A DNA stretch of 64,000 nt, from the sequence record NC_134263.1; one strand, given 5' to 3'. Position 1 is the stretch's first letter. Each line of letters starts with the position of its first letter. Positions 3,979-54,086 of the stretch are shown here, piece after piece. This DNA is from Escherichia phage T5_ev219. The notes below the pieces were generated by a model. The model did not search any database, was not told the DNA's origin, and saw nothing but the letters and a program-made list of their open reading frames with translations. The position numbers and the translations under genes are program-made.

Positions 3979-4008
3979 TAATTAACTCCTTCATCAATTT
4001 ATATAACT

Positions 4009-4038
4009 ATTATACCAGAAATTTAAAGTAAAAGGCAA
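4009..4038 (-). promoter_or_regulatory. sigma70-type early promoter
   Basis: ATTATA 4009-4014, -35-like AAGGCA 4032-4037. Confidence 0.45.
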
Positions 4039-4068
4039 GTACATTTTTAAAAATTCTGTTTGGAGGAG

Positions 4069-4437: not shown

Positions 4438-4450
4438 TATTTCCTTAATT

Positions 4451-4527
4451 TGGTAGGGGTGGTGGGATTCGAACCCACAAAACCTGAATTTTAAGTCCAG
4501 TACCTATGCCAATTCGATTACACCCCC
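4451..4527 (-). tRNA. tRNA with anticodon TAA (Leu-type anticodon, short variable arm), tentative
   Basis: Acceptor GGGGGTG/CACCCCT, anticodon stem CTGGA/TTCAG with loop CTTAAAA, T-arm GTGGG-TTCGAAT-CCCAC, encoded CCA; D-arm poorly paired. Confidence 0.5.
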
Positions 4528-4628
4528 GTGTAATCAGTTTATTAGTTGATACATATTATAGCCTAAAGAAAACCCTACTACTAATCCTACTAACCAACCA
4601 ATATAATAATCTTTTAATTTCACGGGTG

Positions 4629-4814
4629 TCAACCTCGTTCAATATCTAGAGAAATACCACAGGTAGGATTAATGCCTGTGCCTTTGCACGTCGGACAAAC
4701 CCAGATATTACAGAATGTATCCCCTGCTTCTGCATCAGAACTTTCTCCAACTCCTAGACAGTCAGGACAGGCACATTCTTCTAGCTCTTGCTTGAGTTCT
4801 TGAAACTTAGACAT
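4629..4814 (-). CDS. small Cys-rich protein (61 aa, CxxC pairs, zinc-finger-like)
   Basis: CACPDC...CPTCKGTG...C motif pattern. Confidence 0.5.
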   Translation of the reverse strand: MSKFQELKQELEECACPDCLGVGESSDAEAGDTFCNIWVCPTCKGTGINPTCGISLDIERG

Positions 4815-4823
4815 ATAGTTTCC

Positions 4824-5012
4824 TTATTCAATTACTTTTGAGGCTTCAAGGGAGTCGATATAGTGTACGTTTTCTACCATAATCATATAATCTGCCACTT
4901 TATCCATAGCCTGAGCTTCAGAGGTAGCCCTGGCTAACCTATATCCTTTTTTATATTCATCCGGGTATTCCCTATCTGGAATAAACACAACATAAACTAG
5001 GTATAGTTCCAC
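4824..5012 (-). CDS. hypothetical protein (62 aa)
   Basis: ORF directly downstream of tRNA-Met on the transcribed strand. Confidence 0.4.
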   Translation of the reverse strand: MELYLVYVVFIPDREYPDEYKKGYRLARATSEAQAMDKVADYMIMVENVHYIDSLEASKVIE

Positions 5013-5033
5013 TTGTAACCCCTCTAATTAAAC

Positions 5034-5111
5034 TGGTGGCTCCCCGAGGATTCGAACCTACGTACCTTCCGGTTATGAGCCGGGTGCTCATACCATATGA
5101 GCTTGAGAACC
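5034..5111 (-). tRNA. tRNA-Met (anticodon CAT), tentative
   Basis: Acceptor GGTTCTC/GGGAGCC with G-U pairs, anticodon loop CTCATAA flanked by CCGG stems, T-loop TTCGAAT, encoded CCA; T-stem imperfect. Confidence 0.55.
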
Positions 5112-5117
5112 AGAATT

Positions 5118-5207
5118 TGGCGGAAGAAGTGGGAATCGAACCCACAAGGCTATATTTCAAACCGACAGATTAGCAATCTGCTGCAATACCGTTATGCTAT
5201 TCTTCCG
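5118..5207 (-). tRNA. tRNA-Ser (anticodon GCT), long variable arm
   Basis: Acceptor GGAAGAA/TTCTTCC, anticodon stem CAGA/TCTG with loop TTGCTAA, long variable arm, T-arm GTGGG-TTCGATT-CCCAC, encoded CCA. Confidence 0.8.
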
Positions 5208-5221
5208 AATTTATAAGATAT

Positions 5222-5250
5222 ATTATATTAGAAATTTAGCTTCATAGCAA
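5222..5250 (-). promoter_or_regulatory. sigma70-type early promoter driving tRNA-Ser/Met cluster
   Basis: ATTATA 5222-5227, TAGCAA 5245-5250, 17-bp spacer. Confidence 0.55.
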
Positions 5251-5310
5251 GAAAATTTTTCAAGTTTTCGGTAGACATCTCATCCACATCTACAGGAGAA
5301 ACAAATCCAT

Positions 5311-5745
5311 TTAATTGTCTAGCAAATTTTCACCAGCAGGATCATTATCCCCAACAGCTACCAATTTAAAAGGTAATAATTTCAGTTGCTTTAATAACGC
5401 TTTTCCTGGAGAAGAACCCAACATTGCTAGGGCTGGATAACCAGCGTTATGTAACGCAACTGCCTTAAATACAGATTCAGCGATCAATACTACTTTTTCA
5501 TCTCCATTGAGAGTTTCTAGTCCCCATACACACTGGGTAGTAGAATAAGTAAAATATTTAGCTTCAAAGGGACACTTACCATGACCTTTTGGAGCAGAAG
5601 GATTATAAGTTTGATAGCCCCTCAACATCCCAGAGAAGTCATACAACGGGACTGTTAGCCATCCTTCCGGACTTAACCAGCAATGATATTTTTCTGTATC
5701 AAATCCTCTAGATAAGAGGTGCTGTGTTAGCTCATCAACATTCAT
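5311..5745 (-). CDS. stand-alone TOPRIM-domain protein
   Basis: IAESVF (Toprim Glu) and VAVGDNDPAG (DxD) motifs; start moved to MNVDELT because ORF-track start lies upstream of the promoter at 5776-5804; RBS GAGAGAGGAA. Confidence 0.5.
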   Translation of the reverse strand: MNVDELTQHLLSRGFDTEKYHCWLSPEGWLTVPLYDFSGMLRGYQTYNPSAPKGHGKCPFEAKYFTYSTTQCVWGLETLNGDEKVVLIAESVFKAVALHNAGYPALAMLGSSPGKALLKQLKLLPFKLVAVGDNDPAGENLLDN

Positions 5746-5775
5746 ATCTGGTTCCTCTCTCAAATTTATAGATAT

Positions 5776-5804
5776 ATTATACAGAGAATTTAGCATTCAA
5801 GCAA
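5776..5804 (-). promoter_or_regulatory. sigma70-type early promoter
   Basis: ATTATA 5776-5781, AAGCAA 5799-5804, 17-bp spacer, conserved downstream ATAAATTTGAGAGAGG leader. Confidence 0.6.
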
Positions 5805-5920
5805 TCAAATTTTTTAACTTTTTAGAGGAAAATCATAGGGCACTTAAGGGCAGCAGATAAGTGGTGAGGACCAAAATTTGTGACCCCACTAAAAATCCGG
5901 GGGCAATTTTTAAAGACCCT

Positions 5921-5949
5921 TTGACATTTTCGCCGGGGTAGTGTAAAGT
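5921..5949 (+). promoter_or_regulatory. plus-strand sigma70 promoter (TTGACATTTTCGCCG class)
   Basis: TTGACA 5921-5926, 17-bp spacer, TAAAGT -10; the 15-mer TTGACATTTTCGCCG recurs at 34561. Confidence 0.5.
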
Positions 5950-6011
5950 ATATGTTATGGATGAGTGATCAAAGAGACACACATTTTCTATATACTAGGA
6001 GGTGTCAAAAA

Positions 6012-6992
6012 ATGACAGAAGAAGTAGCTAAGAGTCCTGAGACCGTCGCTAGCGTAGCAGCAGAACTGCATCGTCACGAGGAATCAGATAAGAAAAAGTG
6101 GGAGAAGGTCAGAGCCTACGAAGAAGAACATCGTGAACACGATGATAAAGATGAAGAAGATGACGATGATGTACGTTGTCATAAATATGGAAAATATAAA
6201 ATGCAAGAACCAGTAAACGTATTTACTAACGGCTTCCCTGGCATGGGTGCATTCCCAGCTAACGCAAGTGCTTTCGGTGGAGAAGGTATGGGTCTATTCG
6301 GAGCTATCCTAATCGGTGCTCTATTAACCGGCGGATTTGGTGGTTTTGGTGGTTTTGGTCGTGGTGCTGGCGTTGCCGCTGAAGGAACCGCTGTGGACGC
6401 GATCCTTTCTAACCAGGATACTGCAAGTATTCTAGCTGCAATCAATACTACTCGTACAGAAGCTAACCAGGGCACTGGGGCTGTTCTAAGTGCAGTAAAC
6501 GGTGTGGGAGCTGCTCAAGCTGCTAGCACTCAGCAAGTTCTGACTACTATCTACGGTACAGGTGCTAATCTGTCAAACCAGATCTGTGCTGAAACTCGTA
6601 ACGTTATTCAGGGTCAGTTCGATCTTTCTCGTCAGATGGATCAATCTTTCGCTGCTAACCAGATAGCACGTGCTCAAGATAAGTTTGACTCTGCTCAGAT
6701 TGCTTTCCAGCAGTCTATTCAGACCAACAACCAGTTTGCCGCTGTTCAGGCTCAGATGTGCGCTAACCAGAACGCTATCGAACGTCAGCTTGCTGAATGT
6801 TGCTGTGAGCTTCAGACTGCGATCGCTGGTGTAACTACTGCACGTATCCAGGACGAACTGAATGAATGCCGTCTGCGCGAAGCAATCGCTGCAGGTAGCG
6901 GTGCAAATGGTCAGGTAATCAACCAAATCGCTGTAAGTCTTGGTGCTATCACTCAGACTCTGGCTGGTCTGCAGGCTAAACTGCCGGCTTAA
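6012..6992 (+). CDS. hypothetical protein: acidic N-terminus, Gly-rich hydrophobic segment, Q/A/N-rich C-terminal half
   Basis: AGGAGG RBS before ATG 6012; DDKDEEDDDD tract, GMGLFGAILIGALLTGGFGGFGGFG segment; host-like optimised codons (CGT, CTG, GGT). Confidence 0.6.
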   Translation: MTEEVAKSPETVASVAAELHRHEESDKKKWEKVRAYEEEHREHDDKDEEDDDDVRCHKYGKYKMQEPVNVFTNGFPGMGAFPANASAFGGEGMGLFGAILIGALLTGGFGGFGGFGRGAGVAAEGTAVDAILSNQDTASILAAINTTRTEANQGTGAVLSAVNGVGAAQAASTQQVLTTIYGTGANLSNQICAETRNVIQGQFDLSRQMDQSFAANQIARAQDKFDSAQIAFQQSIQTNNQFAAVQAQMCANQNAIERQLAECCCELQTAIAGVTTARIQDELNECRLREAIAAGSGANGQVINQIAVSLGAITQTLAGLQAKLPA

Positions 6993-7013
6993 AATTAAGG
7001 GGAGGAGCCCATT

Positions 7014-7430
7014 ATGAGTAAATATGGTTTTGTGAACAACGGATTTAATCAACCAATGGGCTCCCAGCAGCCCGTTCCGGGTCTGGATAATCCTTACCTA
7101 CAACAGTTGCAACAGCGTTTAGCAGAAGCGCAACAGATGCAGCAACAACTCCAGCAAAACCCTGGAAGTGTGAGTCCTATGCAAATGATGCAGCAAATGA
7201 GCGGGCAGTCGCAAATGCCTCAACAAATGCATCAACAGGTGACTCAGCAGCAAGTTCAGCAGCAAACCCAACAACCGCAGGTTTCTGCGGAAGGACAGGC
7301 AGTACTAGCCCTTTTCGAAGACTTCGCAAAGACAGAGGATGGGAAGCAGCTTGTATCACTTATGGGTAAGTTTAATAGCTTCTGCCAAAGCCAAATTGCA
7401 AAAGCTCAAAATAGCGGTAATAACTCCTAA
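7014..7430 (+). CDS. hypothetical Q-rich protein (138 aa)
   Basis: RBS GGGGAGGAG; extended polyglutamine-rich low-complexity region. Confidence 0.55.
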   Translation: MSKYGFVNNGFNQPMGSQQPVPGLDNPYLQQLQQRLAEAQQMQQQLQQNPGSVSPMQMMQQMSGQSQMPQQMHQQVTQQQVQQQTQQPQVSAEGQAVLALFEDFAKTEDGKQLVSLMGKFNSFCQSQIAKAQNSGNNS

Positions 7431-7439
7431 GGAGGAATT

Positions 7440-7634
7440 ATGTGTTGCAGAAAATCTGTTTCGTGCTGCCCAATGCCTGTAGCACGTTGTTGCTCTCCAG
7501 CAATGTTTACGCAAATACCGGCGTTCAATCCGTTTGCCTTTAAGCCTACTCTTATCCTGCCCCCTAGAGTAGATTTTCAGTCAAGATTGGCCTCCCGTAT
7601 GGGTGGTTGCTGTAACAAGAGTATATGGTTCTAA
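7440..7634 (+). CDS. hypothetical Cys-doublet peptide (64 aa, four CC pairs)
   Basis: RBS AAGGAGGA; MCCRKSVSCC...RCC...GGCC pattern. Confidence 0.5.
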   Translation: MCCRKSVSCCPMPVARCCSPAMFTQIPAFNPFAFKPTLILPPRVDFQSRLASRMGGCCNKSIWF

Positions 7635-7649
7635 GGAACCAAACAATAA

Positions 7650-7686
7650 AGCCCCTAGTCGAAAGACTTAGGGGCTTTTCTTTTAT
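7650..7686 (+). terminator. rho-independent terminator ending the plus-strand module
   Basis: Hairpin AGCCCCTA-gtcgaaagac-TTAGGGGCT followed by TTTTCTTTT. Confidence 0.7.
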
Positions 7687-7690
7687 CTTA

Positions 7691-7731
7691 AATACAGAAA
7701 AGCCCTGCGCTCTCCAGGGAACGCAGGGCTT
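7691..7731 (-). terminator. rho-independent terminator for minus-strand SPFH gene
   Basis: Hairpin AAGCCCTGCG...CGCAGGGCTT followed on minus strand by TTTTCTGTATTT. Confidence 0.65.
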
Positions 7732-31011: not shown

Positions 31012-31228
31012 AAAATGGGAAACAAGGAAGTTTCCAGTAAAAGAACGTAAAGTTCCTGTTTATGATACTTCGGAAAAGCTATGTAGGGTGGTTCCGCACA
31101 GATTAGCTGGCATCCCTAACATATCCGAGTGGTTACTTAAACAACGGAGGACTAACGTATCTCTTCGCATAGGGTTTGAGTTAGATAAAGTATATGCTGA
31201 ACTTTCTTCTTTGCTCAAGGAATCGTAA
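30995..31228 (+). CDS. hypothetical protein
   Basis: ORF overlapping end of previous gene; start at MTVKNKK. Confidence 0.4.
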   Translation: MTVKNKKWETRKFPVKERKVPVYDTSEKLCRVVPHRLAGIPNISEWLLKQRRTNVSLRIGFELDKVYAELSSLLKES

Positions 31229-31236
31229 AAATTTAT

Positions 31237-31265
31237 TTGCTTTCAGGAAAATTTTTCTGTATAAT
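31237..31265 (+). promoter_or_regulatory. strong sigma70 early promoter (sequence matches phage T5 PN25 from memory)
   Basis: TTGCTT 31237-31242, 17-bp spacer, TATAAT 31260-31265, AT-rich UP tract, leader ATAAATTTGAGAGAGGAG then ATG 31297. Confidence 0.75.
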
Positions 31266-31296
31266 AGATTCATAAATTTGAGAGAGGAGTTTAAAT

Positions 31297-32001
31297 ATGG
31301 CTGGTTCTCGCAGAAAGAAACATATCCATGAAATCCCTGATGAAGTCTTTAAAAAAGTTATAGAGCATCTGGAGAACGGTGGTACTAAGAAAGCAGCATG
31401 TGAGATGCTCGGCGTATCATCCAATCCGACTATGGAAAGGATGATAGAAGAGTGGCAAGATCGCCAAATTCAGGTTGCCGAGATGAAGAAAAAGAAACGT
31501 GGTACACTCATTGAAGGTATTGAGTTGGCCAACGTTATTGAACAGTATCTATCTGGTGATTCTTTTGAAGAGATTGCCGATCGTAACTACCGCTCTGTAG
31601 CAATGGTTAAATCTGTTCTAGAACGATATGGTGCTCTACTTCGTTTGAACGATATTGTAGACCCCTTGAATCCTCCAATTATTCCTGACGATGCTGTAGC
31701 AGAAGAATTTGAGGTTGGAGAACTTGTTTGGGTTCCTGGATACCAGTGTATCGGTGAAATCAAAAAAGCAATGGATAACCCTGTTGGTTGTTATCGAGTC
31801 TGGTTACTATCGGAAGGCAAACAACAGAACGTTCATTATATGAATTACGAGCTGGCTTCTGTTAAACATCTGGAAAAGTTAGGGGTTGACGTAAAATCTC
31901 TGGGGTACAAGTGGACTCGTGAAGAAGTTATTACGTTGATTAACGAAGCTGTTAAGGCTGCCTTGAAACTTGATAAAGAAAAAGGAAAACGCCGTGAGTA
32001 G
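31297..32001 (+). CDS. putative DNA-binding protein with helix-turn-helix motifs
   Basis: HTH-like GTKKAACEMLGVSSNPTMERM and SFEEIADRNYRSVAMVKSVLERYG. Confidence 0.5.
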   Translation: MAGSRRKKHIHEIPDEVFKKVIEHLENGGTKKAACEMLGVSSNPTMERMIEEWQDRQIQVAEMKKKKRGTLIEGIELANVIEQYLSGDSFEEIADRNYRSVAMVKSVLERYGALLRLNDIVDPLNPPIIPDDAVAEEFEVGELVWVPGYQCIGEIKKAMDNPVGCYRVWLLSEGKQQNVHYMNYELASVKHLEKLGVDVKSLGYKWTREEVITLINEAVKAALKLDKEKGKRRE

Positions 32002-33142: not shown

Positions 33143-33451
33143 ATGAGCGAACAGGTAAATCAAAACTATGAAGGACACGTTGATGATCAGTCCATCATAC
33201 TTTGGGAGAAGGAGGGGGAACAAGTAAGATTAACAGTATCTGAATTTCGTGGGAATCTATACATGGGTATTCGTTACTGGCTTCTTGATATTAATGATGA
33301 ATGGTTTCCAACGAAATCTGGCTTCTCTTTTCCTTACACCCTAGAAACAACATCACAGCTTTTCTATGCGTTTACACAGATTCTTAGCGAATCTGAGGTT
33401 TTACATGAAGTACAGAAACGAGCTGAAGAACTCAAAGCCAAGAATGCCTAG
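33143..33451 (+). CDS. hypothetical protein (102 aa)
   Basis: ORF ending inside terminator hairpin 33438-33468. Confidence 0.5.
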   Translation: MSEQVNQNYEGHVDDQSIILWEKEGEQVRLTVSEFRGNLYMGIRYWLLDINDEWFPTKSGFSFPYTLETTSQLFYAFTQILSESEVLHEVQKRAEELKAKNA

Positions 33452-33468
33452 TTCTTGGCTTTTTCTTT
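33438..33468 (+). terminator. rho-independent terminator
   Basis: Hairpin GCCAAGAA-tgcctag-TTCTTGGC followed by TTTTTCTTT. Confidence 0.65.
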
Positions 33469-33478
33469 ATAAATGTAT

Positions 33479-33507
33479 TTGCTTTCAACTCAGTTTTGTT
33501 ATATAAT
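33479..33507 (+). promoter_or_regulatory. sigma70-type early promoter for ligase A
   Basis: TTGCTT 33479-33484, 17-bp spacer, TATAAT 33502-33507. Confidence 0.6.
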
Positions 33508-33538
33508 ATTTATATAAATTAATGAGAGATATAAATAA

Positions 33539-34510
33539 ATGACTAATGTAAAAGAATTTATTAAACGCTGTCAAGAAGCATATTATCAGGGTATGTCTTT
33601 AATCTCTGATGAGGAGTATGATTGCCTGGTAAAACGCTTCCCGTTAGAAGAAGAGATCGGGCCTAGGGGTGATATTCCACATCTGTATCGTATGTATTCT
33701 TTACAGAAAGTTTACTATAACCGTGGAGATAAATCACCATTCAATCCTTTAGGTCAGGTGGAAACCGATAAGTTAGATGGTTGTGCAATTTCTCTGCTAT
33801 ATATTAATGGCGAATTTGTTCAAGCATTAACCCGTGGTAATGGTATTCTGGGGAATGATGTCACAAGCAACGTAAGATTGCTGAACATTCCTAAAAAGAT
33901 TTCCCAAAAAGTACCTACTCAAATCACTGGTGAAGTTCTAATTACAAAAGAAGTAGAAAATAAACGTAACTTTGCCTCTGGTGCTATTAACCTCAAAGAT
34001 AGTGATGCTTTCGTACAACGTATTGGAGAAGGTGGTTTAATCTTCGTTGCATACGGTATCCAGTGTTCTGCTGAATCTGTAGGTATTACAGAAGCATATT
34101 TAAAAGATATGCTTTGGCTGGAGAATGAGAACTTCTTAACAGTTGTTAATGTGCGTTCCTTCTTTAAATGGATTCCGACGGACGGTAAAGTTGTTCGTAT
34201 TAATGACAACAACAAATTCTTCCGTGAAGGCTGGACTAATAAATTCCCTCGTGGAGCATTCGCCATTAAAGAGGATGAAGAAGGCGAGATTACAACTCTT
34301 ACTAAAGTTGAATGGCAGGTAGGGGCTTCTGGTAAAGTAACTCCAGTCGGTTATTTTGAACCAGTAATTATTGATGATGCTACAATTGTTAAAGCGACTC
34401 TTAATAACGTTGATTATATTAACTCTCTTGATCTAGAGATCGGTTGCCAGATTCGAGTGATTCGTGCTGGTGGTGTAATCCCGTGCATAGTAGAGCGAGT
34501 ATACGATTAA
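33539..34510 (+). CDS. ligA: NAD-dependent DNA ligase, adenylation/OB part (subunit A of split ligase)
   Basis: LigA N-terminal Ia-like region and adenylation motif KLDG (ETDKLDGCAISLLY); no Zn-finger/HhH/BRCT, which are in the next ORF. Confidence 0.8.
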   Translation: MTNVKEFIKRCQEAYYQGMSLISDEEYDCLVKRFPLEEEIGPRGDIPHLYRMYSLQKVYYNRGDKSPFNPLGQVETDKLDGCAISLLYINGEFVQALTRGNGILGNDVTSNVRLLNIPKKISQKVPTQITGEVLITKEVENKRNFASGAINLKDSDAFVQRIGEGGLIFVAYGIQCSAESVGITEAYLKDMLWLENENFLTVVNVRSFFKWIPTDGKVVRINDNNKFFREGWTNKFPRGAFAIKEDEEGEITTLTKVEWQVGASGKVTPVGYFEPVIIDDATIVKATLNNVDYINSLDLEIGCQIRVIRAGGVIPCIVERVYD

Positions 34511-34560
34511 TACATAACCCTTTGCTACCCATCTACCATATCGGAATTATAAAGTGGTTA

Positions 34561-34589
34561 TTGACATTTTCGCCGCTTAGGTATATACT
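34561..34589 (+). promoter_or_regulatory. sigma70 promoter (TTGACATTTTCGCCG class) inside ligase spacer
   Basis: TTGACA 34561-34566, 17-bp spacer, TATACT 34584-34589; shares 15-mer with promoter at 5921. Confidence 0.5.
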
Positions 34590-34653
34590 ATTATCATTCA
34601 GTTGAGGGATAGAAAGTTATGGCGAGGGTAAGCAAAGTTAGTTAAAATTGTAG

Positions 34654-34682
34654 TTGCTAAATGCTTAAATACTTGCTATAAT
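34654..34682 (+). promoter_or_regulatory. sigma70-type early promoter for ligase B
   Basis: TTGCTA 34654-34659, 17-bp spacer, TATAAT 34677-34682, conserved leader. Confidence 0.6.
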
Positions 34683-34712
34683 ATTTATATAAATTGATAA
34701 GGAAGAAATTTG

Positions 34713-35492
34713 ATGAAAATCGAAATTCCAACACAATGTCCCTCTTGTGGTTCTAAGCTAGATCTTGTCAACGGACAATTATTCTGTCGTAATAAGTCCA
34801 ACTGTCCAGCGCAATCAAGTAAGTTAATTGAGAACTTCTGTTCAAAAATGAAGTTAAAGGGTTTTGGCCCAAAAACTATTGAGAAGCTGGAGCTGACGAA
34901 GATTTCAGAACTATTTTACCTAACCGAAGAAGATTTGGTTAGAGCCGTGGGTAGCAAGGTTGCCGCTAAGTTAATTAGCGAATTAAATACTAAAGTTCGC
35001 GGAGACATTGACTTTGGTTCAGTTCTCGGTTCTTTAGGAATCCCTCTAATCGGAGAGGTTGCAGCAAAGAAATTATCCCAAAATTGCACTAGCTTCCACG
35101 ATGTGAAGGCTGACGGCAAGGCTGGAGAAAACTATAAAGCCTGGCTAAATTCCCCACAGGGCAAGGATGTTATCGAATTACCGTGGAAATTCACAACTGG
35201 TATTAAAGGTGCTAAAGCTGAGGTCATCATCACTGATGGTCTAGTAGCCCAACCAAACGGAATAACGGTATGTATTACCGGATCTTTGCAAGATTTTGCA
35301 AATAGAACGGATGCAACAAACTATTTAGAAGGTCTAGGATATACGGTTAAGAAATCCGTTACCAAAGACGTCAAATACCTAATCTGTGAGGATGAATCTA
35401 AGCGTTCTTCCTCATCTTATAAGAAAGCCGAAACGAATGGGATAGAAATCCTGTCGATTAAAGAACTATTGGAGAAAAATAATAATGTCTAA
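34713..35492 (+). CDS. ligB: NAD-dependent DNA ligase C-terminal part (Zn finger, HhH, BRCT; subunit B)
   Basis: CPSCGSKL...C..C Zn finger, helix-hairpin-helix GFGPKTIEKL / LGIPLIGEVAAKKL, BRCT-like ITVCITGSL. Confidence 0.75.
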   Translation: MKIEIPTQCPSCGSKLDLVNGQLFCRNKSNCPAQSSKLIENFCSKMKLKGFGPKTIEKLELTKISELFYLTEEDLVRAVGSKVAAKLISELNTKVRGDIDFGSVLGSLGIPLIGEVAAKKLSQNCTSFHDVKADGKAGENYKAWLNSPQGKDVIELPWKFTTGIKGAKAEVIITDGLVAQPNGITVCITGSLQDFANRTDATNYLEGLGYTVKKSVTKDVKYLICEDESKRSSSSYKKAETNGIEILSIKELLEKNNNV

Positions 35493-36252
35493 ACTGAACT
35501 GGAACGTAGAAGGTGTAACCGAGTCTCTGAAAGCAAAAGCCACTGCTCTGGGTGTTGCTGTAATCTCTCAAGAACAAGTAGCGGCTATCGCTGCTGAACT
35601 GGCTGCTGAAACTGGCAAAGACGTTACCGCTCGCTCTGTTGGCTCTAAGCTGCGCAAAGAAGGTTTCGAAGTACAGAAAGCTAACGAAGTACAGAAATCC
35701 CCGTGGACTCCTGAGCAGGAAGCTGAACTGGTTGATTTCCTGAACGCTCATGCTGGTCAGTATACTTATGCTGAAATCGCTGCTGCTGTAGCTGGTGGTC
35801 AGTTTGGTGCTAAGCAGGTACAGGGTAAGATCCTGAGTCTGGAAATGACAGCATCTGTTAAGCCGACCGAAAAAGCTGCTGCTGTTCGTTCCTTCACTCC
35901 TGATGAAGAAACTGATTTTGTTAATCAGGTTGTTGCTGGTGCTACTATTGAAGCTATCGCTGCTCACTTCGGTCGTAATATCAAGCAGATCCGTGGTAAA
36001 GCTCTGAGTCTGCTTCGCGAAGGTCGTATCGCTGCTATGCCGGTACAGGAAACTTCAAGTGCTAAAACTCGTGAAGATCTGTTAGAAGGTCTGGATCTGG
36101 CTAACATGACTGTTGCTGAGATCGCTGAGAAAACTGGTAAGTCTGAGCGCGGTGTTAAATCTATGCTGTCTCGTCGTGGTCTGGTTGCTAAGGACTATGA
36201 TGGTGCCGCTAAGCGTGCTAAATTGGATGCAAAAGCTGCGGCTGCTGAATAA
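35485..36252 (+). CDS. putative DNA-binding protein with four internal repeats of about 35 aa
   Basis: Repeats ...AIAAELAAETGKDVTARSVGSKLRKEG / TYAEIAAAVAGGQFGAKQVQGKILSL / TIEAIAAHFGRNIKQIRGKALSL / TVAEIAEKTGKSERGVKSMLSRRG; strongly optimised codons. Confidence 0.55.
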   Translation: MSKLNWNVEGVTESLKAKATALGVAVISQEQVAAIAAELAAETGKDVTARSVGSKLRKEGFEVQKANEVQKSPWTPEQEAELVDFLNAHAGQYTYAEIAAAVAGGQFGAKQVQGKILSLEMTASVKPTEKAAAVRSFTPDEETDFVNQVVAGATIEAIAAHFGRNIKQIRGKALSLLREGRIAAMPVQETSSAKTREDLLEGLDLANMTVAEIAEKTGKSERGVKSMLSRRGLVAKDYDGAAKRAKLDAKAAAAE

Positions 36253-36337: not shown

Positions 36338-37807
36338 ACCTTGTTTAACGTGCAAGCTGTAGTGTTGAAGATGCTTCTAGCTTCAGAACAGAAGCAAATA
36401 GCATTGGAAACATTCTCAAAACTGCATAAAGATCATTTTAATGACGCTTTCTCCTCAATTTACCAAGCCGTCCAGAATTATTATAAAAAATATAACACAA
36501 TGCCGTCCATTGACGCACTGATGCTTGAGGCTAATAGGAACGCCCGCCTTTCTCAAGCTCTAGTCGTTTTAGCTAACACTCAAATTCCAGAAGTTAGCAT
36601 GGAACAGGCACTTGAAGTCCTAGAGGCCGAGTATACACAGGATTTATTCCTGAAGCTTCTAGAAACAGACGTGCTTCAAGATTTAACAATGCTGGATCAG
36701 GGAGAAATTCTTAACCGAGTTGCCTCCCTTCACTTAAAATTAGAAGAGAAAGTAACGAATACTGGAAAAGTATTCAACGCAGATAACATGCGTATTTTCC
36801 AGAGAGAAGAAGATACCAAACTGAACTTAATCGCTCTTGGTATTTGTAATGAGTTCGACGCTCAAATTGGTTTAGCTCGCACAGAAACGTTACTGCTTGG
36901 TGGTTGGCGTGGTACTGGTAAATCCATTATCTGTTCAAACATACAGGTTCAGCAATATTTGAATGGAGATATTGCTCCATACTTCTCAATTGAGATGAAA
37001 GAACATGAAGTATTTAGACGTAATCTAGCCATGTTAGCTGGTGTATCAGCACTAGCAATGCGTAATAATACTCTAGAAGGTGCAGCTCTGTTGAGATTAG
37101 CCAGAACTAGAGCTAGGATGTTTAACGGTGGTGAAGAGCTTTTCGATAACTTCGTTAAACAGTACACAATGGCTAAGATGAGTGATTTCTACGATATGGA
37201 AAGTAAGCTAATAGAAGGGTATGAACTACATACTCCTATGATTATTGTTTATGATCCTGAGCTGTCTATTACAACAGTTGACGTAGAATTAAATAAATTA
37301 GTTGCTAGATATGGTGATAAAGTTACAGTAGCTTTACTTGACTATATTAACCAAACCCGACTTCCAGATTCTAAAACCATTGATATGTATGACTGGAAAG
37401 AACAGATGGTTGTTAGCTCGTCTTTCAAATCTATCTGCCAGAAACATAACGTGGCTGGTGTAGCTCCTTACCAGATTGATCAAGATGGTAGAACACGTAT
37501 GTCAAAGGGGATTCTTGATTCCGCAGACATGGCTGCTAATCTTAATGCTGCAAAAGCTGATAATGGTCAAGGTGCTATTATGTTTGACTTCGTTAAGACT
37601 CGTTCTTCTGATAGTGTGAAGTTTATGCCTAAAATGAACTGGGAAACCCTACGGATGGATAACACTACCAACCTAGCAATGGAAGATATATCTCAAATGG
37701 AAGCTGAGTTCGTTATCCCTATTGAGAAGGATAAGCCGGCTCAATCTAAACGTGCTAAGAAAGACAAAGCTGAAAATTCAACAGGTGAACAGGCCAGCGA
37801 TATATGA
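36338..37807 (+). CDS. DnaB-like replicative helicase (RecA-fold ATPase)
   Basis: Walker A GGWRGTGKS, Walker B IIVYDPEL; start moved to MTLFNVQ (RBS AAAGGAGA) because the ORF-track start lies in the terminator. Confidence 0.65.
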   Translation, partial: TLFNVQAVVLKMLLASEQKQIALETFSKLHKDHFNDAFSSIYQAVQNYYKKYNTMPSIDALMLEANRNARLSQALVVLANTQIPEVSMEQALEVLEAEYTQDLFLKLLETDVLQDLTMLDQGEILNRVASLHLKLEEKVTNTGKVFNADNMRIFQREEDTKLNLIALGICNEFDAQIGLARTETLLLGGWRGTGKSIICSNIQVQQYLNGDIAPYFSIEMKEHEVFRRNLAMLAGVSALAMRNNTLEGAALLRLARTRARMFNGGEELFDNFVKQYTMAKMSDFYDMESKLIEGYELHTPMIIVYDPELSITTVDVELNKLVARYGDKVTVALLDYINQTRLPDSKTIDMYDWKEQMVVSSSFKSICQKHNVAGVAPYQIDQDGRTRMSKGILDSADMAANLNAAKADNGQGAIMFDFVKTRSSDSVKFMPKMNWETLRMDNTTNLAMEDISQMEAEFVIPIEKDKPAQSKRAKKDKAENSTGEQASDI

Positions 37808-38334
37808 TAACACAGGAACGACTAAAAGAACTGTTTGACTACTCCCCAGAGACTGGGGAGTTTACTAGAAAAGTATCTAGAGGCAATCAGAAAGCTGGTA
37901 GTATTGCGGGTACTCTAGATAGTGGATACATACGGATAAAGGTAGATAGAAAATTATACTTTGCACACCAACTAGCCTTCCTATATATGGAAGGATATAT
38001 GCCAGAGGAAGTAGACCATATTAATCGAATTACTTGGGATAATAGATGGATTAATATTAGGCCATCCACCCGGCAAGAAAATAGCAGAAATAAAACAGCT
38101 AGAAGTAAATCTGGATACTTGGGAGTTTTCTGGTTTAAGCGGGATCACAAATGGCATGTAAGAGTAGTAAATTCTATGGGAGAAAAAGTTCACGGTGGGC
38201 TCTTTAATTACGCAGATCTAAAGCTTGCAGTCACTAAAGCCAATGAACTACGTCTACAATTACATGGAGAAAATGCTGTTCAAGAGATCTTTGATCCAAC
38301 TAAGTATCCTTCACTGGAGGAGTTAAATTCATGA
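37804..38334 (+). CDS. HNH homing endonuclease, copy 2
   Basis: Paralog of 15203..15751 (LAFLYMEG...VDHINR...DNRWINIR...SGYLGVFW); overlaps helicase stop and primase start by 4 nt each. Confidence 0.75.
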   Translation: MITQERLKELFDYSPETGEFTRKVSRGNQKAGSIAGTLDSGYIRIKVDRKLYFAHQLAFLYMEGYMPEEVDHINRITWDNRWINIRPSTRQENSRNKTARSKSGYLGVFWFKRDHKWHVRVVNSMGEKVHGGLFNYADLKLAVTKANELRLQLHGENAVQEIFDPTKYPSLEELNS

Positions 38335-39221
38335 GTAGAATAACAGAATTACTTGATCTTAAGGGAATTGAGTATAAAGATACTGGTGGAGATATTTTAA
38401 TCTGTTGCTTAAATCCAGATCATGACGATAAACACCCAAGTTTGCGTATTGACCCTGAAACAGGTATTATGCACTGCTTGAGTTGTGGCTTCGGTAAAGG
38501 TATACCGAGCATTTACCATTATTTTAATGAGACTCAGTACCGACAGTCCCCAAGGCTATCGCAAGTACGTAAAAAGATTTCAGAGATTAGGAATGGATCA
38601 ACGAATCTTGCAATTCCTGAATCTGCTTGCCTTTTCGAAGGTGATTTCCGAGGTATAAGTTCTAAGACCTTGAAGAAATATTTTGCTTTCCAACACCAAG
38701 CAGACTGGGAAGGCAGAATTGTATTCCCAATCACAGATGCTGTTGGACGCAATATCCTATTTTTGGGTCGTTCTATAAACAGTTCTGCCCCTCCTAAATA
38801 CTTAGTAAAACCAAAACAAGTTTCACCGCCAATTTTTCCTGTACGATATAATACTCCAGTTCTTATTCTAGTTGAAGGCATCTTTGATATGCTGAACCTA
38901 GAGGATAATGGTATAGACTATACTTCTTGCTGCTTTGGTACACACCAGTTTACTTCGGATAACATTGCAGATAAGTTCAGTCCTTATATTATTGCCGGTG
39001 TAAAAGTTGTTGTTATCTTACTAGATAATGATGCTTCTGGTAATAAAGCTGCCCAGGCGCTAGCAAAATTAATTAGTACAAAAACGCGTTTAACACCTGT
39101 AGTTGCTAACTTTCTTCTGCCTGAAGGTAAAGACCCTGGTGACTTAAATAAAGAAGAGATTGATATGTTAGCAAAACGTATTGAAATTTTAGTTGCTGAA
39201 TCGCTTAAAGATTTGGTATAA
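38331..39221 (+). CDS. DNA primase (DnaG-like, Zn finger plus TOPRIM)
   Basis: Zn-binding CCLNPDHDDKHPS...HCLSCG, TOPRIM LVEGIFD and LLDNDASG. Confidence 0.8.
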   Translation: MSRITELLDLKGIEYKDTGGDILICCLNPDHDDKHPSLRIDPETGIMHCLSCGFGKGIPSIYHYFNETQYRQSPRLSQVRKKISEIRNGSTNLAIPESACLFEGDFRGISSKTLKKYFAFQHQADWEGRIVFPITDAVGRNILFLGRSINSSAPPKYLVKPKQVSPPIFPVRYNTPVLILVEGIFDMLNLEDNGIDYTSCCFGTHQFTSDNIADKFSPYIIAGVKVVVILLDNDASGNKAAQALAKLISTKTRLTPVVANFLLPEGKDPGDLNKEEIDMLAKRIEILVAESLKDLV

Positions 39222-39283
39222 TATATTGGTAAGTTAGAGAAGAAACACTGAAGTTATACTTACTTACCAAGAGGAGATTAAAT

Positions 39284-41851
39284 TTGAAAATCGCAGTAGT
39301 TGATAAAGCTCTAAATAACACTCGTTATGATAAACATTTCCAGCTATACGGCGAGGAAGTTGATGTATTCCATATGTGTAACGAGAAGTTATCCGGTCGT
39401 TTGCTCAAAAAGCATATTACTATCGGGACTCCGGAAAACCCATTTGACCCGAATGATTATGATTTTGTTATACTGGTAGGTGCCGAACCTTTTCTGTACT
39501 TCGCAGGTAAGAAAGGCATTGGTGACTATACTGGTAAACGCGTAGAGCATAATGGATATGCTAACTGGATTGCTAGTATCAGCCCAGCCCAGTTACACTT
39601 TAAGCCTGAAATGAAACCAGTTTTTGATGCAACAGTAGAGAGTATCCACGATATTATCAATGGTCGTGAGAAGGTTGCAAAAGCTGGTGATTACCGTCCT
39701 ATTACTGACCCTGACGAGGCGGAAGAATATATCAAGATGGTGTATAATATGGTTATCGGACCTGTCGCATTTGACTCCGAAACCTCAGCACTATACTGTC
39801 GAGATGGTTATCTGCTTGGTGTTTCTATGTCTCACCAAGAGTATCAGGGTGTATATATCGATTCTGATTGTCTCACAGAAGTTGCAGTATATTATCTCCA
39901 GAAAATTCTGGATAGTGAAAACCACACTATTGTTTTTCACAACTTGAAGTTTGATATGCACTTTTATAAGTACCATCTGGGACTTACTTTTGATAAAGCA
40001 CATAAAGAACGCAGGCTCCATGATACCATGTTGCAGCACTATGTTCTAGATGAACGTCGTGGTACTCATGGCTTGAAATCTCTAGCAATGAAGTATACCG
40101 ATATGGGTGACTATGACTTCGAACTAGATAAGTTCAAAGATGATTACTGCAAAGCACATAAAATCAAGAAAGAAGATTTCACCTATGATTTAATTCCGTT
40201 TGATATTATGTGGCCTTACGCTGCGAAAGATACAGATGCTACCATACGTTTACACAACTTCTTCTTACCAAAAATTGAGAAGAATGAAAAACTTTGTAGT
40301 CTGTACTATGATGTTTTGATGCCTGGTTGCGTATTCTTGCAACGTGTTGAGGATCGTGGAGTACCTATCTCTATTGATCGTTTGAAAGAAGCTCAGTATC
40401 AGTTAACTCATAACCTGAATAAAGCCCGTGAGAAACTGTATACTTATCCAGAAGTTAAACAGCTAGAACAAGATCAGAATGAAGCATTTAACCCGAACTC
40501 TGTTAAACAACTTCGTGTTCTTCTGTTCGATTATGTTGGTTTGACTCCAACTGGTAAGTTAACGGATACTGGTGCAGATTCTACAAACGCAGAAGCTCTG
40601 AATGAACTGGCTACGCAGCATCCAATTGCTAAAACTCTGCTAGAGATTCGTAAGCTGACTAAGCTAATCTCTACTTATGTTGAGAAGATTCTTCTGAGTA
40701 TTGATGCGGATGGTTGCATTCGTACTGGTTTTCATGAACATATGACTACTTCTGGTCGTCTGAGTTCTTCTGGTAAACTGAACCTGCAACAGTTACCTCG
40801 TGATGAATCTATCATTAAGGGTTGTGTAGTTGCACCACCTGGATACCGTGTAATCGCATGGGACTTAACAACTGCGGAAGTTTATTATGCTGCTGTTCTA
40901 TCTGGTGATAGAAATATGCAACAAGTATTTATCAACATGAGAAATGAACCTGATAAATACCCTGACTTCCACTCTAACATCGCCCACATGGTATTTAAAT
41001 TGCAATGTGAACCTCGTGATGTTAAGAAGCTGTTCCCAGCTCTACGTCAGGCAGCTAAGGCAATTACCTTTGGTATTTTGTATGGTTCTGGCCCGGCTAA
41101 AGTAGCACATTCTGTTAACGAAGCATTGCTCGAACAAGCATCCAAAACTGGTGAACCGTTTGTTGAATGTACTGTTGCAGATGCTAAAGAGTACATTGAG
41201 ACTTACTTTAGTCAATTCCCACAGCTTAAGCGTTGGATTGATAAGTGCCACGATCAGATCAAGAATCATGGATTTATCTATAGTCACTTTGGTCGCAAAC
41301 GTCGTCTACATAATATCCACTCCGAGGACCGTGGCGTTCAGGGTGAAGAAATTCGTTCTGGATTTAACGCAATCATTCAGTCTGCTTCTTCTGATAGTCT
41401 CCTTTTAGGTGCTGTAGATGCAGATAATGAGATCATTTCTCTTGGCCTAGAACAAGAGATGAAGATTGTTATGCTGGTTCATGACTCCGTAGTTGCTATT
41501 GTTCGTGAGGATTTGATCGACCAATACAATGAAATTCTGATTCGTAATATTCAGAAAGACCGTGGTATCAGTATTCCTGGCTGTCCAATTGGTATTGATT
41601 CAGATTCTGAAGCTGGAGGTTCTCGTGACTATTCTTGTGGTAAGATGAAGAAACAGCACCCATCAATCGCTTGTATTGATGATGACGAATATACTCGTTA
41701 CGTTAAAGAAATGCTACTTGACGCAGAGTTCGAGTATAAGAAACTAGCTGCAATGGATAAAGAGCATCCAGATCATAGCAAATACAAGGATGATAAGTTT
41801 ATTGCTGTATGCAAAGATCTGGATAACGTGAAAAGGATTCTCGGTGCTTAA
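39284..41851 (+). CDS. DNA polymerase, family A, with 3-prime to 5-prime exonuclease domain
   Basis: Exo I FDSETSALY, motif B KAITFGILYGSG, motif C LVHDSVV; TTG start with RBS GAGGAGA. Confidence 0.9.
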   Translation: MKIAVVDKALNNTRYDKHFQLYGEEVDVFHMCNEKLSGRLLKKHITIGTPENPFDPNDYDFVILVGAEPFLYFAGKKGIGDYTGKRVEHNGYANWIASISPAQLHFKPEMKPVFDATVESIHDIINGREKVAKAGDYRPITDPDEAEEYIKMVYNMVIGPVAFDSETSALYCRDGYLLGVSMSHQEYQGVYIDSDCLTEVAVYYLQKILDSENHTIVFHNLKFDMHFYKYHLGLTFDKAHKERRLHDTMLQHYVLDERRGTHGLKSLAMKYTDMGDYDFELDKFKDDYCKAHKIKKEDFTYDLIPFDIMWPYAAKDTDATIRLHNFFLPKIEKNEKLCSLYYDVLMPGCVFLQRVEDRGVPISIDRLKEAQYQLTHNLNKAREKLYTYPEVKQLEQDQNEAFNPNSVKQLRVLLFDYVGLTPTGKLTDTGADSTNAEALNELATQHPIAKTLLEIRKLTKLISTYVEKILLSIDADGCIRTGFHEHMTTSGRLSSSGKLNLQQLPRDESIIKGCVVAPPGYRVIAWDLTTAEVYYAAVLSGDRNMQQVFINMRNEPDKYPDFHSNIAHMVFKLQCEPRDVKKLFPALRQAAKAITFGILYGSGPAKVAHSVNEALLEQASKTGEPFVECTVADAKEYIETYFSQFPQLKRWIDKCHDQIKNHGFIYSHFGRKRRLHNIHSEDRGVQGEEIRSGFNAIIQSASSDSLLLGAVDADNEIISLGLEQEMKIVMLVHDSVVAIVREDLIDQYNEILIRNIQKDRGISIPGCPIGIDSDSEAGGSRDYSCGKMKKQHPSIACIDDDEYTRYVKEMLLDAEFEYKKLAAMDKEHPDHSKYKDDKFIAVCKDLDNVKRILGA

Positions 41852-51384: not shown

Positions 51385-51663
51385 TTACGCCCACTCTCTA
51401 AGAGGCTGTTCCAACTGAACTATAAAAGGCTCAAAGTATTCATAAGTAAAGGATTCACCAAGAATCCTTACATTAACATAGTATCCTTCATTACGGGTGT
51501 ATCTAGGTTCCTCATCGCCTGGTGCGGAGATTTCAGTATAAGTATAGCCAATCTCGTCCAGGATAAACATATCTCGTAACTCTTCATTTTCTTGCCAGTT
51601 TATTCCAACTAAGAAATTTTTATATTCGTTCTTGTCTTTAAATTTTAATATTATATCTTTCAT
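51385..51663 (-). CDS. hypothetical protein (92 aa) inside fibre locus
   Basis: ORF between the two fibre genes. Confidence 0.45.
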   Translation of the reverse strand: MKDIILKFKDKNEYKNFLVGINWQENEELRDMFILDEIGYTYTEISAPGDEEPRYTRNEGYYVNVRILGESFTYEYFEPFIVQLEQPLREWA

Positions 51664-54086
51664 ACAGACTCCCTCATTTGACGATCCGTTAATTCTTTAT
51701 GCCAGATTCTAAAATTTCTGACATGCCCGAAAAGATGTTTCCCACCATCTGCACTTATGCCGCCGATACGAAGATTTTTAGAAAAACCAGCTTTCCATGT
51801 TGTTTTCACAGGCGTACCGAACACAGCGTTTGTTACGCATCTTAATTCTGAGCTTTTGTTGCAAACAAAACCCGTCACCATTTTCCCGCTTGTTTTTGTT
51901 GATACTGGCGTAAATGACTGACTGACCCCCAACTGAGAATAAGGCAGCGGCTCTACTGTATCGCTTGATGGAACCCTGAAAGCAACTAATAACTGGTCTT
52001 CTGGTGCATTTGCTACATGTACTATCCTTGGTGCTGAGTTTGGGGCTATATCCCAATTTCTATTTACCTCAACAAGTAGACTTAACGGTATAGAGGATGG
52101 TTGATTGCAATCAGTTGGTATTAGGACCATGTCACTAGCTCTTGTGGCGGGCGTACTGCTTGTAATTATGAACGATGAAGCGCATGACCCTTTTTCAATT
52201 TGCGGAGTAGTCACCTCAACAAAACTAGAATCATCATAAGTGGCATCGGCTTTTTGCACAATCTGAATTCCACCGTTAATATATGCTGAGTTATCTGTAA
52301 CTTTATAAACAACCTCTATAGCAACCCATTCACCATCCTGAACAACATTTTTCACAGTGATGTTAGACGCATCCTGCCCGGACGTGAATGTAGCTAGCGT
52401 GTCGCTGTCAATAAAAAGAACAGCAACAGTAGCAGGTGTTTCTCCTTTGCTAAATCTAGCAACAAATCTTAGATTATGTCCTCTTGCCCTAAACGATAGT
52501 GTAACTGCGTCATCTTTAACTACAGATATATTGTTTTGCGAGTTACCTGATATAATCCCATATGTACCAGTAGAGCCAGAGTAAACACCAGGGCCGAACG
52601 TTGCATATTTAAAACCACGATCATCGGTTTTTGTTTCACTTTTGCTTAGCCCTGAATTCGAGTTCCATAATTCTGGCGCGTTTGAATTCGCAAAATAGTT
52701 AGTTCTCTGACCTTCAATAAGCAGACCTTCTTTTTCAAAACGTGGCTCATTAATTTCTGCAATGGTAAGAGCGCCGGACTTATTGATATAGGTCGCAGTT
52801 GATGCACGAGTAAAGCTAACAATCTTGTCGCTAGGCAGTGTTATTTCCTCATCACCAACTGTTATTTTTTTATAGCCTGGTGCAAAGCCGGTGATCATAT
52901 CTAGAGAATCGTTAAACGGTATCCATACATCTGGAAGAGGTTGAATGTCGGGGGTAGAATTAGCAGCAGCTTCTGATCTATCAGCCTCAGTTTTTGAACG
53001 ATCGGCTTCAGTTTTAGCAGTATTAGCACTATTAGCAGCAGCAGTAGCCTGTTCCCCCGCTTCTGCTGCAGAATTAGCAGCATTAGTTGCAGAAGTTGCA
53101 GCTTGGTTTTTTAAAGTTGTTGTCTCAGATACCGCGCTATTCTTAATACCTTGTGTATCTGTTTTTAGTTGCTCAACATCCGCTTTTAAAGCTGTTGTCT
53201 CTGTTACAGCACTATTTTTAATGGCCTGGGTATCAGATTTTAACTGTTCTACATCCGCTTTTAAAGCTGTTGTCTCTGTTACAGCACTATTTTTAATGGC
53301 TTGGGTATCAGATTTTAACTGTTCAACATCTGATTTAAGTACTTGAATAGCAGCTACAGATTGGCTGGCAGAAGTTGCAGATCCCGCAGCATTAGTTTCA
53401 CTAGCCTTAGCTTTTGTTTCCGAGGTTTTTGCATTGGTTTCAGAGATTTTTGCCGCAGATGCCGATGCAGCAGCTTGCTCAGAGAATATTTCCGCCTCAT
53501 TCCTAAAACCGTTAGAAGCAGCAGCTGATTGAGCTGCATTAGTCTCACTGACCTTTGCATTATCCTCACTAAGTTTTGCCGCTGCAGTCGAAGCAGCAGC
53601 ATTAGTTTCACTAGCCTTTGCCTTATCCTCACTAGCTTTTGCATTAGTTTCGCTAGTTTTAGCTTTTGTTTCACTAGCTTTTGCATTAGTTTCGCTAGTT
53701 TTAGCTTTTGTTTCACTAGACTTAGCATTAGTTTCAGAGGTTTTTGCAGCTGCAGCTGATTCTGCAGATTTAGTAGCAGAAGTGGCAGACTGAGTAGCAG
53801 AGGTAGCAGATTGAGTAGCAGAAGCTTCAGAAGCTCCAGCAGAAATAGCAGCTTCCTGTTCAGAGTTCTTAGCATTAAGCTCTGAAGTCTTAGCTGCTAT
53901 TTCAGAATCTTTTGCAGCCGCAGCAGATTTAGCAGCAGCCTCTATAGAAGATACTAACTCATTAGCAGTAATAGAGCTAATAGAATTTCCAAAAGTTACT
54001 GTGTATCTAGGAAATTTACTAGCAGTAGCTTTAGTATCATCAATATTTAATATTTGTTGTACAATAATCTTAGTAGTTATTGCCAT
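51660..54086 (-). CDS. L-shaped tail fibre protein, proximal part (808 aa, A/S/T/E-rich repeats)
   Basis: Long low-complexity repeat region (SETNAKASETKAK..., ALKADVEQLKSDTQAIKNSAVTETT x3), position next to pb4/pb3-like genes. Confidence 0.65.
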   Translation of the reverse strand: MAITTKIIVQQILNIDDTKATASKFPRYTVTFGNSISSITANELVSSIEAAAKSAAAAKDSEIAAKTSELNAKNSEQEAAISAGASEASATQSATSATQSATSATKSAESAAAAKTSETNAKSSETKAKTSETNAKASETKAKTSETNAKASEDKAKASETNAAASTAAAKLSEDNAKVSETNAAQSAAASNGFRNEAEIFSEQAAASASAAKISETNAKTSETKAKASETNAAGSATSASQSVAAIQVLKSDVEQLKSDTQAIKNSAVTETTALKADVEQLKSDTQAIKNSAVTETTALKADVEQLKTDTQGIKNSAVSETTTLKNQAATSATNAANSAAEAGEQATAAANSANTAKTEADRSKTEADRSEAAANSTPDIQPLPDVWIPFNDSLDMITGFAPGYKKITVGDEEITLPSDKIVSFTRASTATYINKSGALTIAEINEPRFEKEGLLIEGQRTNYFANSNAPELWNSNSGLSKSETKTDDRGFKYATFGPGVYSGSTGTYGIISGNSQNNISVVKDDAVTLSFRARGHNLRFVARFSKGETPATVAVLFIDSDTLATFTSGQDASNITVKNVVQDGEWVAIEVVYKVTDNSAYINGGIQIVQKADATYDDSSFVEVTTPQIEKGSCASSFIITSSTPATRASDMVLIPTDCNQPSSIPLSLLVEVNRNWDIAPNSAPRIVHVANAPEDQLLVAFRVPSSDTVEPLPYSQLGVSQSFTPVSTKTSGKMVTGFVCNKSSELRCVTNAVFGTPVKTTWKAGFSKNLRIGGISADGGKHLFGHVRNFRIWHKELTDRQMRESV
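53110..53330. repeat. in-frame tandem repeat, period 69 bp, about 3 copies
   Basis: Unit CATCCGCTTTTAAAGCTGTTGTCTCTGTTACAGCACTATTTTTAATGGC(C/T)TGGGTATCAGATTTTAACTGTT repeated at 53183, 53252 with a diverged copy upstream. Confidence 0.8.
53590..53750. repeat. in-frame tandem repeat, period 42 bp (21-bp sub-unit)
   Basis: GCATTAGTTTCGCTAGTTTTAGCTTTTGTTTCACTAGCTTTT repeated at 53641 and 53683 with degenerate flanking copies. Confidence 0.75.

Follow-up and report, generated by a model that had tools for sequence, protein, structure and literature searches.

The locus examined here, part of a 64,000-nucleotide stretch of phage DNA (hereafter the window), raises the question of how an NAD+-dependent DNA ligase comes to be encoded in two pieces with promoters between them. 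The initial annotation, made from the sequence alone, took this arrangement to imply either a two-subunit ligase or the remnant of a mobile-element insertion or excision. The reading we favour, with a probability of about 0.9, is that the region encodes a two-polypeptide LigA-type NAD+-dependent ligase of T5-like phages (Demerecviridae), which would work as set out below.

Two genes that together cover LigA

The region is 98% identical to the phages T5 and BF23, identifying the source as a T5-like phage (Tequintavirus), and 454 phage records match it, 429 of them over at least 80% of the 2.2-kb query. The order of the p15-like gene, ligA, ligB, D5 and the D6 helicase gene is that of T5. The T5 record AY543070 annotates ligA, 'promoter P-K 28b', 'promoter P-K 28a' and ligB ('subunit B'), followed by D5 and the D6 helicase, and the BF23 record gives ligA and ligB the same names. 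The closest known system is accordingly T5 itself (ligA/ligB, T5.116/T5.117, AAS77162/AAS77163; Wang et al. 2005, Virology 332:45), which has the same genes in the same order, the same 202-bp spacer, a promoter block identical to that of the window and proteins that are 98-99% identical, so that the two differ by strain-level substitutions only (about 2% of the DNA in the region). The coding features of the locus are as follows.

33539-34510, + strand: ligA, N-terminal part of an NAD-dependent DNA ligase, 323 aa
33770-33781, + strand: motif I KLDG (LigA residues 78-81), aligning to E. coli K115-L-D-G and invariant in six genera
34511-34712, + strand: ligA-ligB spacer, 202 bp, non-coding, 31% GC
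34699-34705, + strand: ligB Shine-Dalgarno AAGGAAG, read from the sequence and conserved in the spacer alignment
34713-35492, + strand: ligB, NAD-dependent DNA ligase subunit B, 259 aa, with C4 zinc finger, HhH and BRCT
34737-34805, + strand: LigB zinc-finger cysteines C9, C12, C25 and C31, invariant in eight orthologues
35485-36252, + strand: D5 DNA-binding protein gene, the ATG of which overlaps the ligB stop by 8 nt

The ligA product comprises domain Ia, an adenylation domain carrying KLDG (DNA_ligase_aden, PF01653, Pfam E 9e-24) and, after the nucleotidyltransferase (NTase) domain, an OB fold at residues 252-321 (DNA_ligase_OB, PF03120, E 3e-22). In the ligB ORF, Pfam detected a BRCT domain (E 1.6e-8) together with HhH matches that were weak, HHH_2 at 24.4 bits and HHH_5 at 17 bits lying below the 27-bit gathering score, and the four cysteines line up with the cluster of cysteines in LigA of E. 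coli and Thermus. The ORF list, Pfam and these cysteines thus bear out the earlier assignment of the adenylation/OB part, with its KxDG motif, and the zinc-finger/HhH/BRCT part to separate ORFs, and their proposed separation of about 200 bp proved to be 202 bp. The ORF list places the ligB start at TTG 34710, with an ATG at 34713; the latter is almost certainly the true start, since the T5 annotation uses ATG, the orthologue in the PDB (chain B) begins MKIQIPT and the Shine-Dalgarno motif lies at 34699-34705.

The initial annotation had suggested alignment to full-length bacterial LigA, and the two ORFs do tile that protein. On PHROG 3869, a full-length phage NAD-ligase profile of 656 positions, LigA occupies positions 9-381 and LigB 388-654. 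In BLASTP against E. coli LigA (671 aa), LigA residues 78-318 matched 115-388 and LigB residues 2-253 matched 401-666, and the C-terminal region of LigA was best covered by the Thermus structure 1dgs, in which LigB residues 3-251 correspond to 400-653. A global alignment places the junction at approximately E. coli LigA residues 393/394, within the linker that joins OB fold and zinc finger. Relative to E. coli LigA no residues are missing or repeated at this point, which leaves no space for intein halves.

The catalytic motifs I, III, IV and V of the nucleotidyltransferase domain are present: LigA K78, R99, E132 and K244 correspond in the alignment to E. coli K115, R136, E173 and K314, residues of functional significance, and K78 is the predicted adenylated lysine. 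LigA also has the domain Ia motif for NMN binding and NAD+ specificity, with AYYQGMSLISDEEYDCL (residues 14-30) aligning to E. coli YHVMDAPEIPDAEYDRL; the pattern (A)YYxGxxxISDEEYD is conserved, and Y15, Y16, S23, E25, Y27 and D28 show no variation across six genera. One position departs from E. coli, as the motif IV lysine K290 is replaced by an arginine, R220, that is invariant across the split clade; this is, from the alignment, a conservative but non-canonical change. The pair therefore shares with single-chain LigA (E. coli, PDB 2owo; Thermus filiformis, 1dgs/1v9p) the domain order Ia, NTase, OB, zinc finger, HhH and BRCT, the catalytic motifs and the domain Ia residues for NAD+ specificity, and differs from it in motif IV, in being made as two polypeptides, with zinc finger, HhH and BRCT all on the second, and in combined length (582 versus 671 aa in E. 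coli, the shortening lying in the Ia-NTase linker, an NTase insert and the HhH region).

When solved structures were searched, both halves matched the same deposition, LigA to chain A of PDB 9hu3 (E 6e-103) and LigB to chain B (E 4e-80). Entries 9hu3 and 9i5i contain a 339-aa chain named 'DNA ligase (NAD(+))' and a 248-aa chain named 'DNA ligase subunit B', which tblastn identified as proteins of the Providencia phages PSTCR5 and vB_PreS_PR1 (Priunavirus, Demerecviridae). The loci of these phages are orthologous and show the same domain split with tandem promoters in a 192-nt gap; amino-acid identity to the window is about 56% in both subunits. The T5 enzyme is already termed a split NAD+-dependent ligase in the literature (PMC1684257), and other papers routinely list both ligase subunits. 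Our literature search returned no paper describing 9hu3 or 9i5i and, beyond PMC1684257, no biochemical study showing nick joining by T5 A and B. A split ligase with promoters between its halves is thus real, already known and ordinary for this phage family, and the two-subunit reading of the initial annotation is supported but was already the established one, both orthologous chains being present in the two PDB entries.

The spacer and its promoters

The region contains several transcription signals, three of them promoters.

33434-33462, + strand: terminator-like hairpin after the upstream p15/PC4-like gene (33143-33451), a 12-pair stem followed by a T run
33474-33533, + strand: early promoter upstream of ligA, TTGCTT-17-TATAAT at about 33479-33507
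34561-34589, + strand: distal promoter P-K28b, TTGACA-17-TATACT, 11/12 consensus positions
34654-34682, + strand: proximal promoter P-K28a, TTGCTA-17-TATAAT, 10/12 consensus positions, with a TG extended -10; repeat family D6

The promoter upstream of ligA belongs to the T5 early-promoter repeat families D5/D6, and a promoter is annotated at the matching position in T5. Early promoters of the proximal type (the P-K28a family) are repeated through the window. The 15-mer of the distal promoter, TTGACATTTTCGCCG, described as rare in the initial annotation, has exactly two copies in the window, at 5921 and 34561. The copy at 5921 was expected to correspond to T5 promoter P12, but T5 36500-39500 contains no match to the 15-mer even with one mismatch allowed. 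A generic scan with the sigma-70 consensus over 2.4 kb was not enriched over shuffled sequences (4 promoters found against 6.8 expected), and the two spacer promoters, which the initial annotation had also reported, owe their credibility to the T5 annotation and to conservation rather than to the scan count. Both are conserved in position in five enterobacterial genera, the distal as TTGAC(A/G)-17-TATA(C/A)T and the proximal with its extended -10. A literature search for P-K28a and P-K28b gave only unrelated matches. We take the two to have been mapped experimentally, going by the GenBank feature names and by the T5 promoter series of the Bujard laboratory.

An alignment of the spacer from Tequintavirus, Epseptimavirus and Sugarlandvirus divides it into two parts. 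The first ~35 nt are variable and are the site at which relatives carry insertions, while the remaining 167 nt (34546-34712), containing both promoters and the ligB ribosome-binding site, are nearly invariant: between the window and Epseptimavirus phages 165-167 of the 167 positions are identical, against differences of 26-48% at the synonymous sites of the flanking genes, and in Sugarlandvirus the block is still 78% identical.

Two further candidates within this block were set aside. The predicted P-K28b leader (34596-34712) has an unusually stable fold (-26.1 kcal/mol, z -4.0), but a leader hairpin is unsupported, as RNAalifold on five genera gave no conserved pairs and, by eye, both helices are broken by the Sugarlandvirus sequence. 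A mini-ORF, MARVSKVS (34619-34645), follows a Shine-Dalgarno-like GAGGGA motif; we rejected it as a peptide because its ATG is absent in Sugarlandvirus.

Other contents were sought and not found. Each frame of the spacer has several stops and ligA and ligB lie in different frames, so that a single sequencing error cannot account for the break. An Rfam scan of 34300-34900 at E values up to 1 gave no match, indicating that the spacer holds no intron or known RNA; together with the absence of a spacer ORF and of extra residues at the junction, the locus lacks the marks of a gene interrupted by an intron, an intein or a homing endonuclease. No terminator was detected after ligA in our scan, and the fold of 34490-34565 was no better than that of shuffled sequences (z +0.49), whereas the PR1 record annotates a terminator as well as a promoter in its gap. 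Transcription from the ligA promoter may therefore continue into ligB in the window, and the boundary between transcription units may be leaky. Downstream, the 8-nt overlap places D5 in the ligB transcription unit and suggests that expression of ligB and D5 is coupled.

Distribution of the split and the question of its origin

We scanned IMG/VR with a six-genus LigA alignment and examined 79 loci for both halves. The ligase is split in 71 and fused in 5, and the remaining 3 end before ligB. LigA of the split loci is ~41% or more identical to the window protein, while all five fused loci lie at or below 35%; a distant Yersinia phage likewise encodes a single 637-aa ligase. In 71 of 71 split loci the break falls in the OB-to-zinc-finger linker and the order is A then B. 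The split therefore defines a clade and is fixed across the surveyed T5-like phages. The initial annotation held that a continuous reading frame upon resequencing would refute the split, and every record or locus inspected at this similarity, drawn from hundreds of matching genomes, keeps two genes.

What varies is the gap, which ranges from 61 to 3829 nt across the split loci. Annotated genomes of several genera, all with distinct A and B genes broken at one and the same point, have gaps of the following sizes and contents.

Tequintavirus, Epseptimavirus RN29 and Sugarlandvirus: about 200 nt each, without an ORF
Priunavirus: about 190 nt, with an annotated terminator and promoter
Novosibvirus: 345 nt, containing a 55-aa ORF
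Epseptimavirus smaug: 358 nt, containing a 64-aa ORF
Vibrio phage D260: about 770 nt, with two small ORFs and a third overlapping the ligB start
Cetovirus: about 1.1 kb, containing a small ORF and a DprA-like gene

The promoter ahead of ligB is the constant element. In 30 of 30 representative split loci, in which LigA identity runs from 41 to 99% and gap length covers the full range, the highest-scoring sigma-70 match combines 17-bp spacing with a -10 element ending 27-41 nt before the ligB start, and in most of them few or no shuffled sequences score as high. The shortest gaps, the 61-79 nt of marine metagenomic split relatives, consist of little besides TTGACT-17-TATAAT. Since all 30 scanned loci have such a promoter, ligB appears always to head a transcription unit.

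Both halves are under strong purifying selection, with dN/dS of 0.06-0.14 where synonymous sites are unsaturated. Amino-acid identities of A and B to the window fall together, from 0.72 and 0.73 in Sugarlandvirus to 0.56 and 0.56 in Priunavirus and 0.51 and 0.52 in Cetovirus. Divergence in step of this kind fits one enzyme made of two co-evolving parts, and counts against a ligase in decay.

These comparisons bear on the origin of the split, for which the initial annotation had offered a mobile element. The split could be the scar of a homing-endonuclease or mobile-gene insertion and the T5 spacer what was left after loss of the cargo, an account that concerns origin only and is compatible with a two-subunit function. 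Relatives do carry such cargo at this very junction: a 218-aa GIY-YIG endonuclease (Pfam E 1.1e-5) in the Epseptimavirus locus L035, T5orf172 (GIY-YIG-like) proteins in L083 and L084, a NADAR protein in L045, DprA-like proteins in Vibrio phages and various small ORFs, their insertions falling within the variable first ~35 nt of the spacer. The spacer of the window, however, holds no ORF, no endonuclease remnant and no repeats that we could find, and in the most distant split relatives the minimal gap contains the promoter alone. Because the cargo differs from lineage to lineage and the minimal gaps of the deepest split lineages are free of cargo, we read the cargo genes as later arrivals in an intergenic gap that already existed, and regard an origin by insertion as possible but doubtful. 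The comparison with related phages that the initial annotation had proposed showed a GIY-YIG endonuclease at the site in some relatives, while the Rfam scan of 34300-34900 gave no sign of an intron; the idea of a remnant finds its support in the cargo of relatives and none in the window spacer.

A parallel is offered by the 'genes in pieces' of T4-like phages, such as nrdA of Aeromonas phage Aeh1, which is split by the homing endonuclease mobE, and the gp39/gp60 topoisomerase of T4. There, as here, an essential enzyme of DNA metabolism is produced as two separately translated polypeptides, which in the present case would likewise reassemble, and a free-standing homing endonuclease sits at the junction in some ligase relatives (L035). 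Unlike those cases, the gap in the window contains promoters only, and the split is ancient and fixed in the clade, with no endonuclease tied to its origin.

A probable two-part ligase and its alternatives

For the two-polypeptide ligase, we infer the following division of labour from the way in which LigA fragments are known to behave. LigA would carry the catalytic chemistry, reacting with NAD+ to form a lysyl-AMP intermediate at K78, and LigB, with its zinc finger, HhH and BRCT domains, would supply the DNA-binding part of the clamp. The two are expected to form a non-covalent heterodimer able to seal nicks as single-chain LigA does; such an interface and activity are suggested by the co-deposition of the orthologous chains in the same PDB entries. 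At the level of expression, the break in the OB-to-zinc-finger linker would also be a boundary between transcription units, with ligA closing one early unit and ligB opening the next, followed by D5 and then probably the helicase gene. Transcription of this second unit would start from P-K28b and P-K28a, the two early promoters in tandem in the spacer, and ligB would be translated from its own Shine-Dalgarno motif and ATG. Against this reading stand the arginine at the motif IV position, the shortened HhH region with its Pfam matches below the gathering score, and the failure to detect a terminator after ligA.

The two proteins might instead be independent of one another, LigA being a minimal ligase and LigB a separate DNA-binding/BRCT scaffold that works, for example, with D5. 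The assignment of ligA and ligB to different transcription units, the overlap between ligB and D5, and the distance of up to 3.8 kb between the two genes in some relatives would all agree with this. Set against it are the constant co-occurrence of ligA and ligB in the same order, the fact that the PDB entries each contain both chains and the matched rates at which the halves diverge. LigA fragments without the zinc finger and HhH domains self-adenylate and join nicks poorly, which also counts against independence. Self-adenylation of this kind is documented as well for Haloferax LigN, which retains it when truncated to the Ia, adenylation and OB domains (PMC1684257). Altogether we consider independent roles highly improbable.

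That the ligase is a decaying pseudogene, with the phage relying on the LigA of its host, has nothing in its favour beyond the interruption itself, and is effectively refuted by the intactness of both ORFs in all inspected split loci and annotated records, drawn from hundreds of matching genomes, and by the low dN/dS, the conserved catalytic motifs and the solved structure of an orthologous pair. Rejoining of the ORFs through an intron, split intein or programmed frameshift, or a break due to sequencing error, can be dismissed, given stops in all frames over 202 bp between genes in different frames, the lack of an Rfam family match, a LigA that ends at the OB fold and a LigB that begins at the zinc finger without intein residues, a ligB with its own translation signals, a PDB entry with separate chains, and an identical layout in the 429 phage records and all inspected loci.

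Returning to the two-polypeptide ligase, since the break always coincides with a promoter heading the ligB-D5 unit, the amounts and timing of LigA and LigB might be set independently, making assembly of the ligase a regulatory step; we put this forward as an improbable extension of our reading. Were it true, limited nick sealing late in infection could let the site-specific nicks of T5 virion DNA persist, and LigB could act with D5 in a role of its own, independent of the ligase.

The split itself carries little weight as a discovery, having been annotated in T5 since 2004-2005 and cited as such, with the structure of an orthologue solved. What the present analysis adds is comparative and incremental: the split is fixed in the surveyed clade, both halves are under purifying selection, the ligB promoter is constant and the junction has repeatedly taken up accessory and homing-endonuclease genes. 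These points could guide the study of why the enzyme stays in two pieces.

The ligase halves and the genes found between them in relatives

Codon 220 of LigA, at 34196-34198, encodes an arginine (R220) that aligns with K290, the motif IV lysine of E. coli LigA. Whereas the E. coli enzyme carries lysine here, the split ligases have arginine at this position in all six genera examined. In related IMG/VR viral loci (L-numbers; coordinates are those of each locus), the following genes lie at the ligA-ligB junction:

L035, 4950-5606: GIY-YIG homing endonuclease gene
L083, 5584-5946: gene for a T5orf172-domain protein
L084, 4918-5289: gene for a T5orf172-domain protein
L045, 4953-5609: gene for a NADAR protein

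The ligA-ligB junction is a recurrent site of insertion among these relatives.

P-K28b, its predicted leader and a second copy of its 15-mer

The predicted leader of P-K28b, the distal promoter in the ligA-ligB spacer, folds in silico into a long hairpin (34596-34712; -26.1 kcal/mol, z -4.0, with no shuffled sequence equally stable), in which upstream sequence would pair with the -10 region of the proximal promoter, P-K28a. A search for conserved structure in this leader across five genera found none. The P-K28b 15-mer TTGACATTTTCGCCG has a second exact copy in the window at 5921-5935, preceding a plus-strand ORF that starts at 6013. In the matching T5 region (AY543070, 36500-39500), which contains promoter P12, the 15-mer was not found, even allowing one mismatch. 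The element at 5921-5935 may differ between T5_ev219 and T5.

Repeats elsewhere in the window

239-9386, minus strand: cluster of 14 tRNA genes
9313-9386, minus strand: one of these 14, called tRNA-Ser with anticodon ACT by ARAGORN
31226-31290: AAAAATTTATTTGCTTTCAGGAAAATTTTTCTGTATAATAGATTCATAAATTTGAGAGAGGAG, upstream of the D2 ORF (31297-32001)
51660-54086, minus strand: 808-aa ORF with extensive 21-nt and 75-nt tandem repeats

Promoter-like 62-nt repeats, forming a 12-copy family, are scattered among the tRNA genes; the ACT anticodon of the tRNA-Ser is itself unusual. The sequence before D2 belongs to repeat family D5, one of the T5 early-promoter families, and it matches the classic T5 P-N25 promoter, which is used in pQE expression vectors. 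The tandem repeats of the 808-aa ORF read SETNAK / KSDTQAIKNSAVTETTALKADVEQL. Its product, much shorter than T5 pb1, is probably an L-shaped tail-fibre protein.
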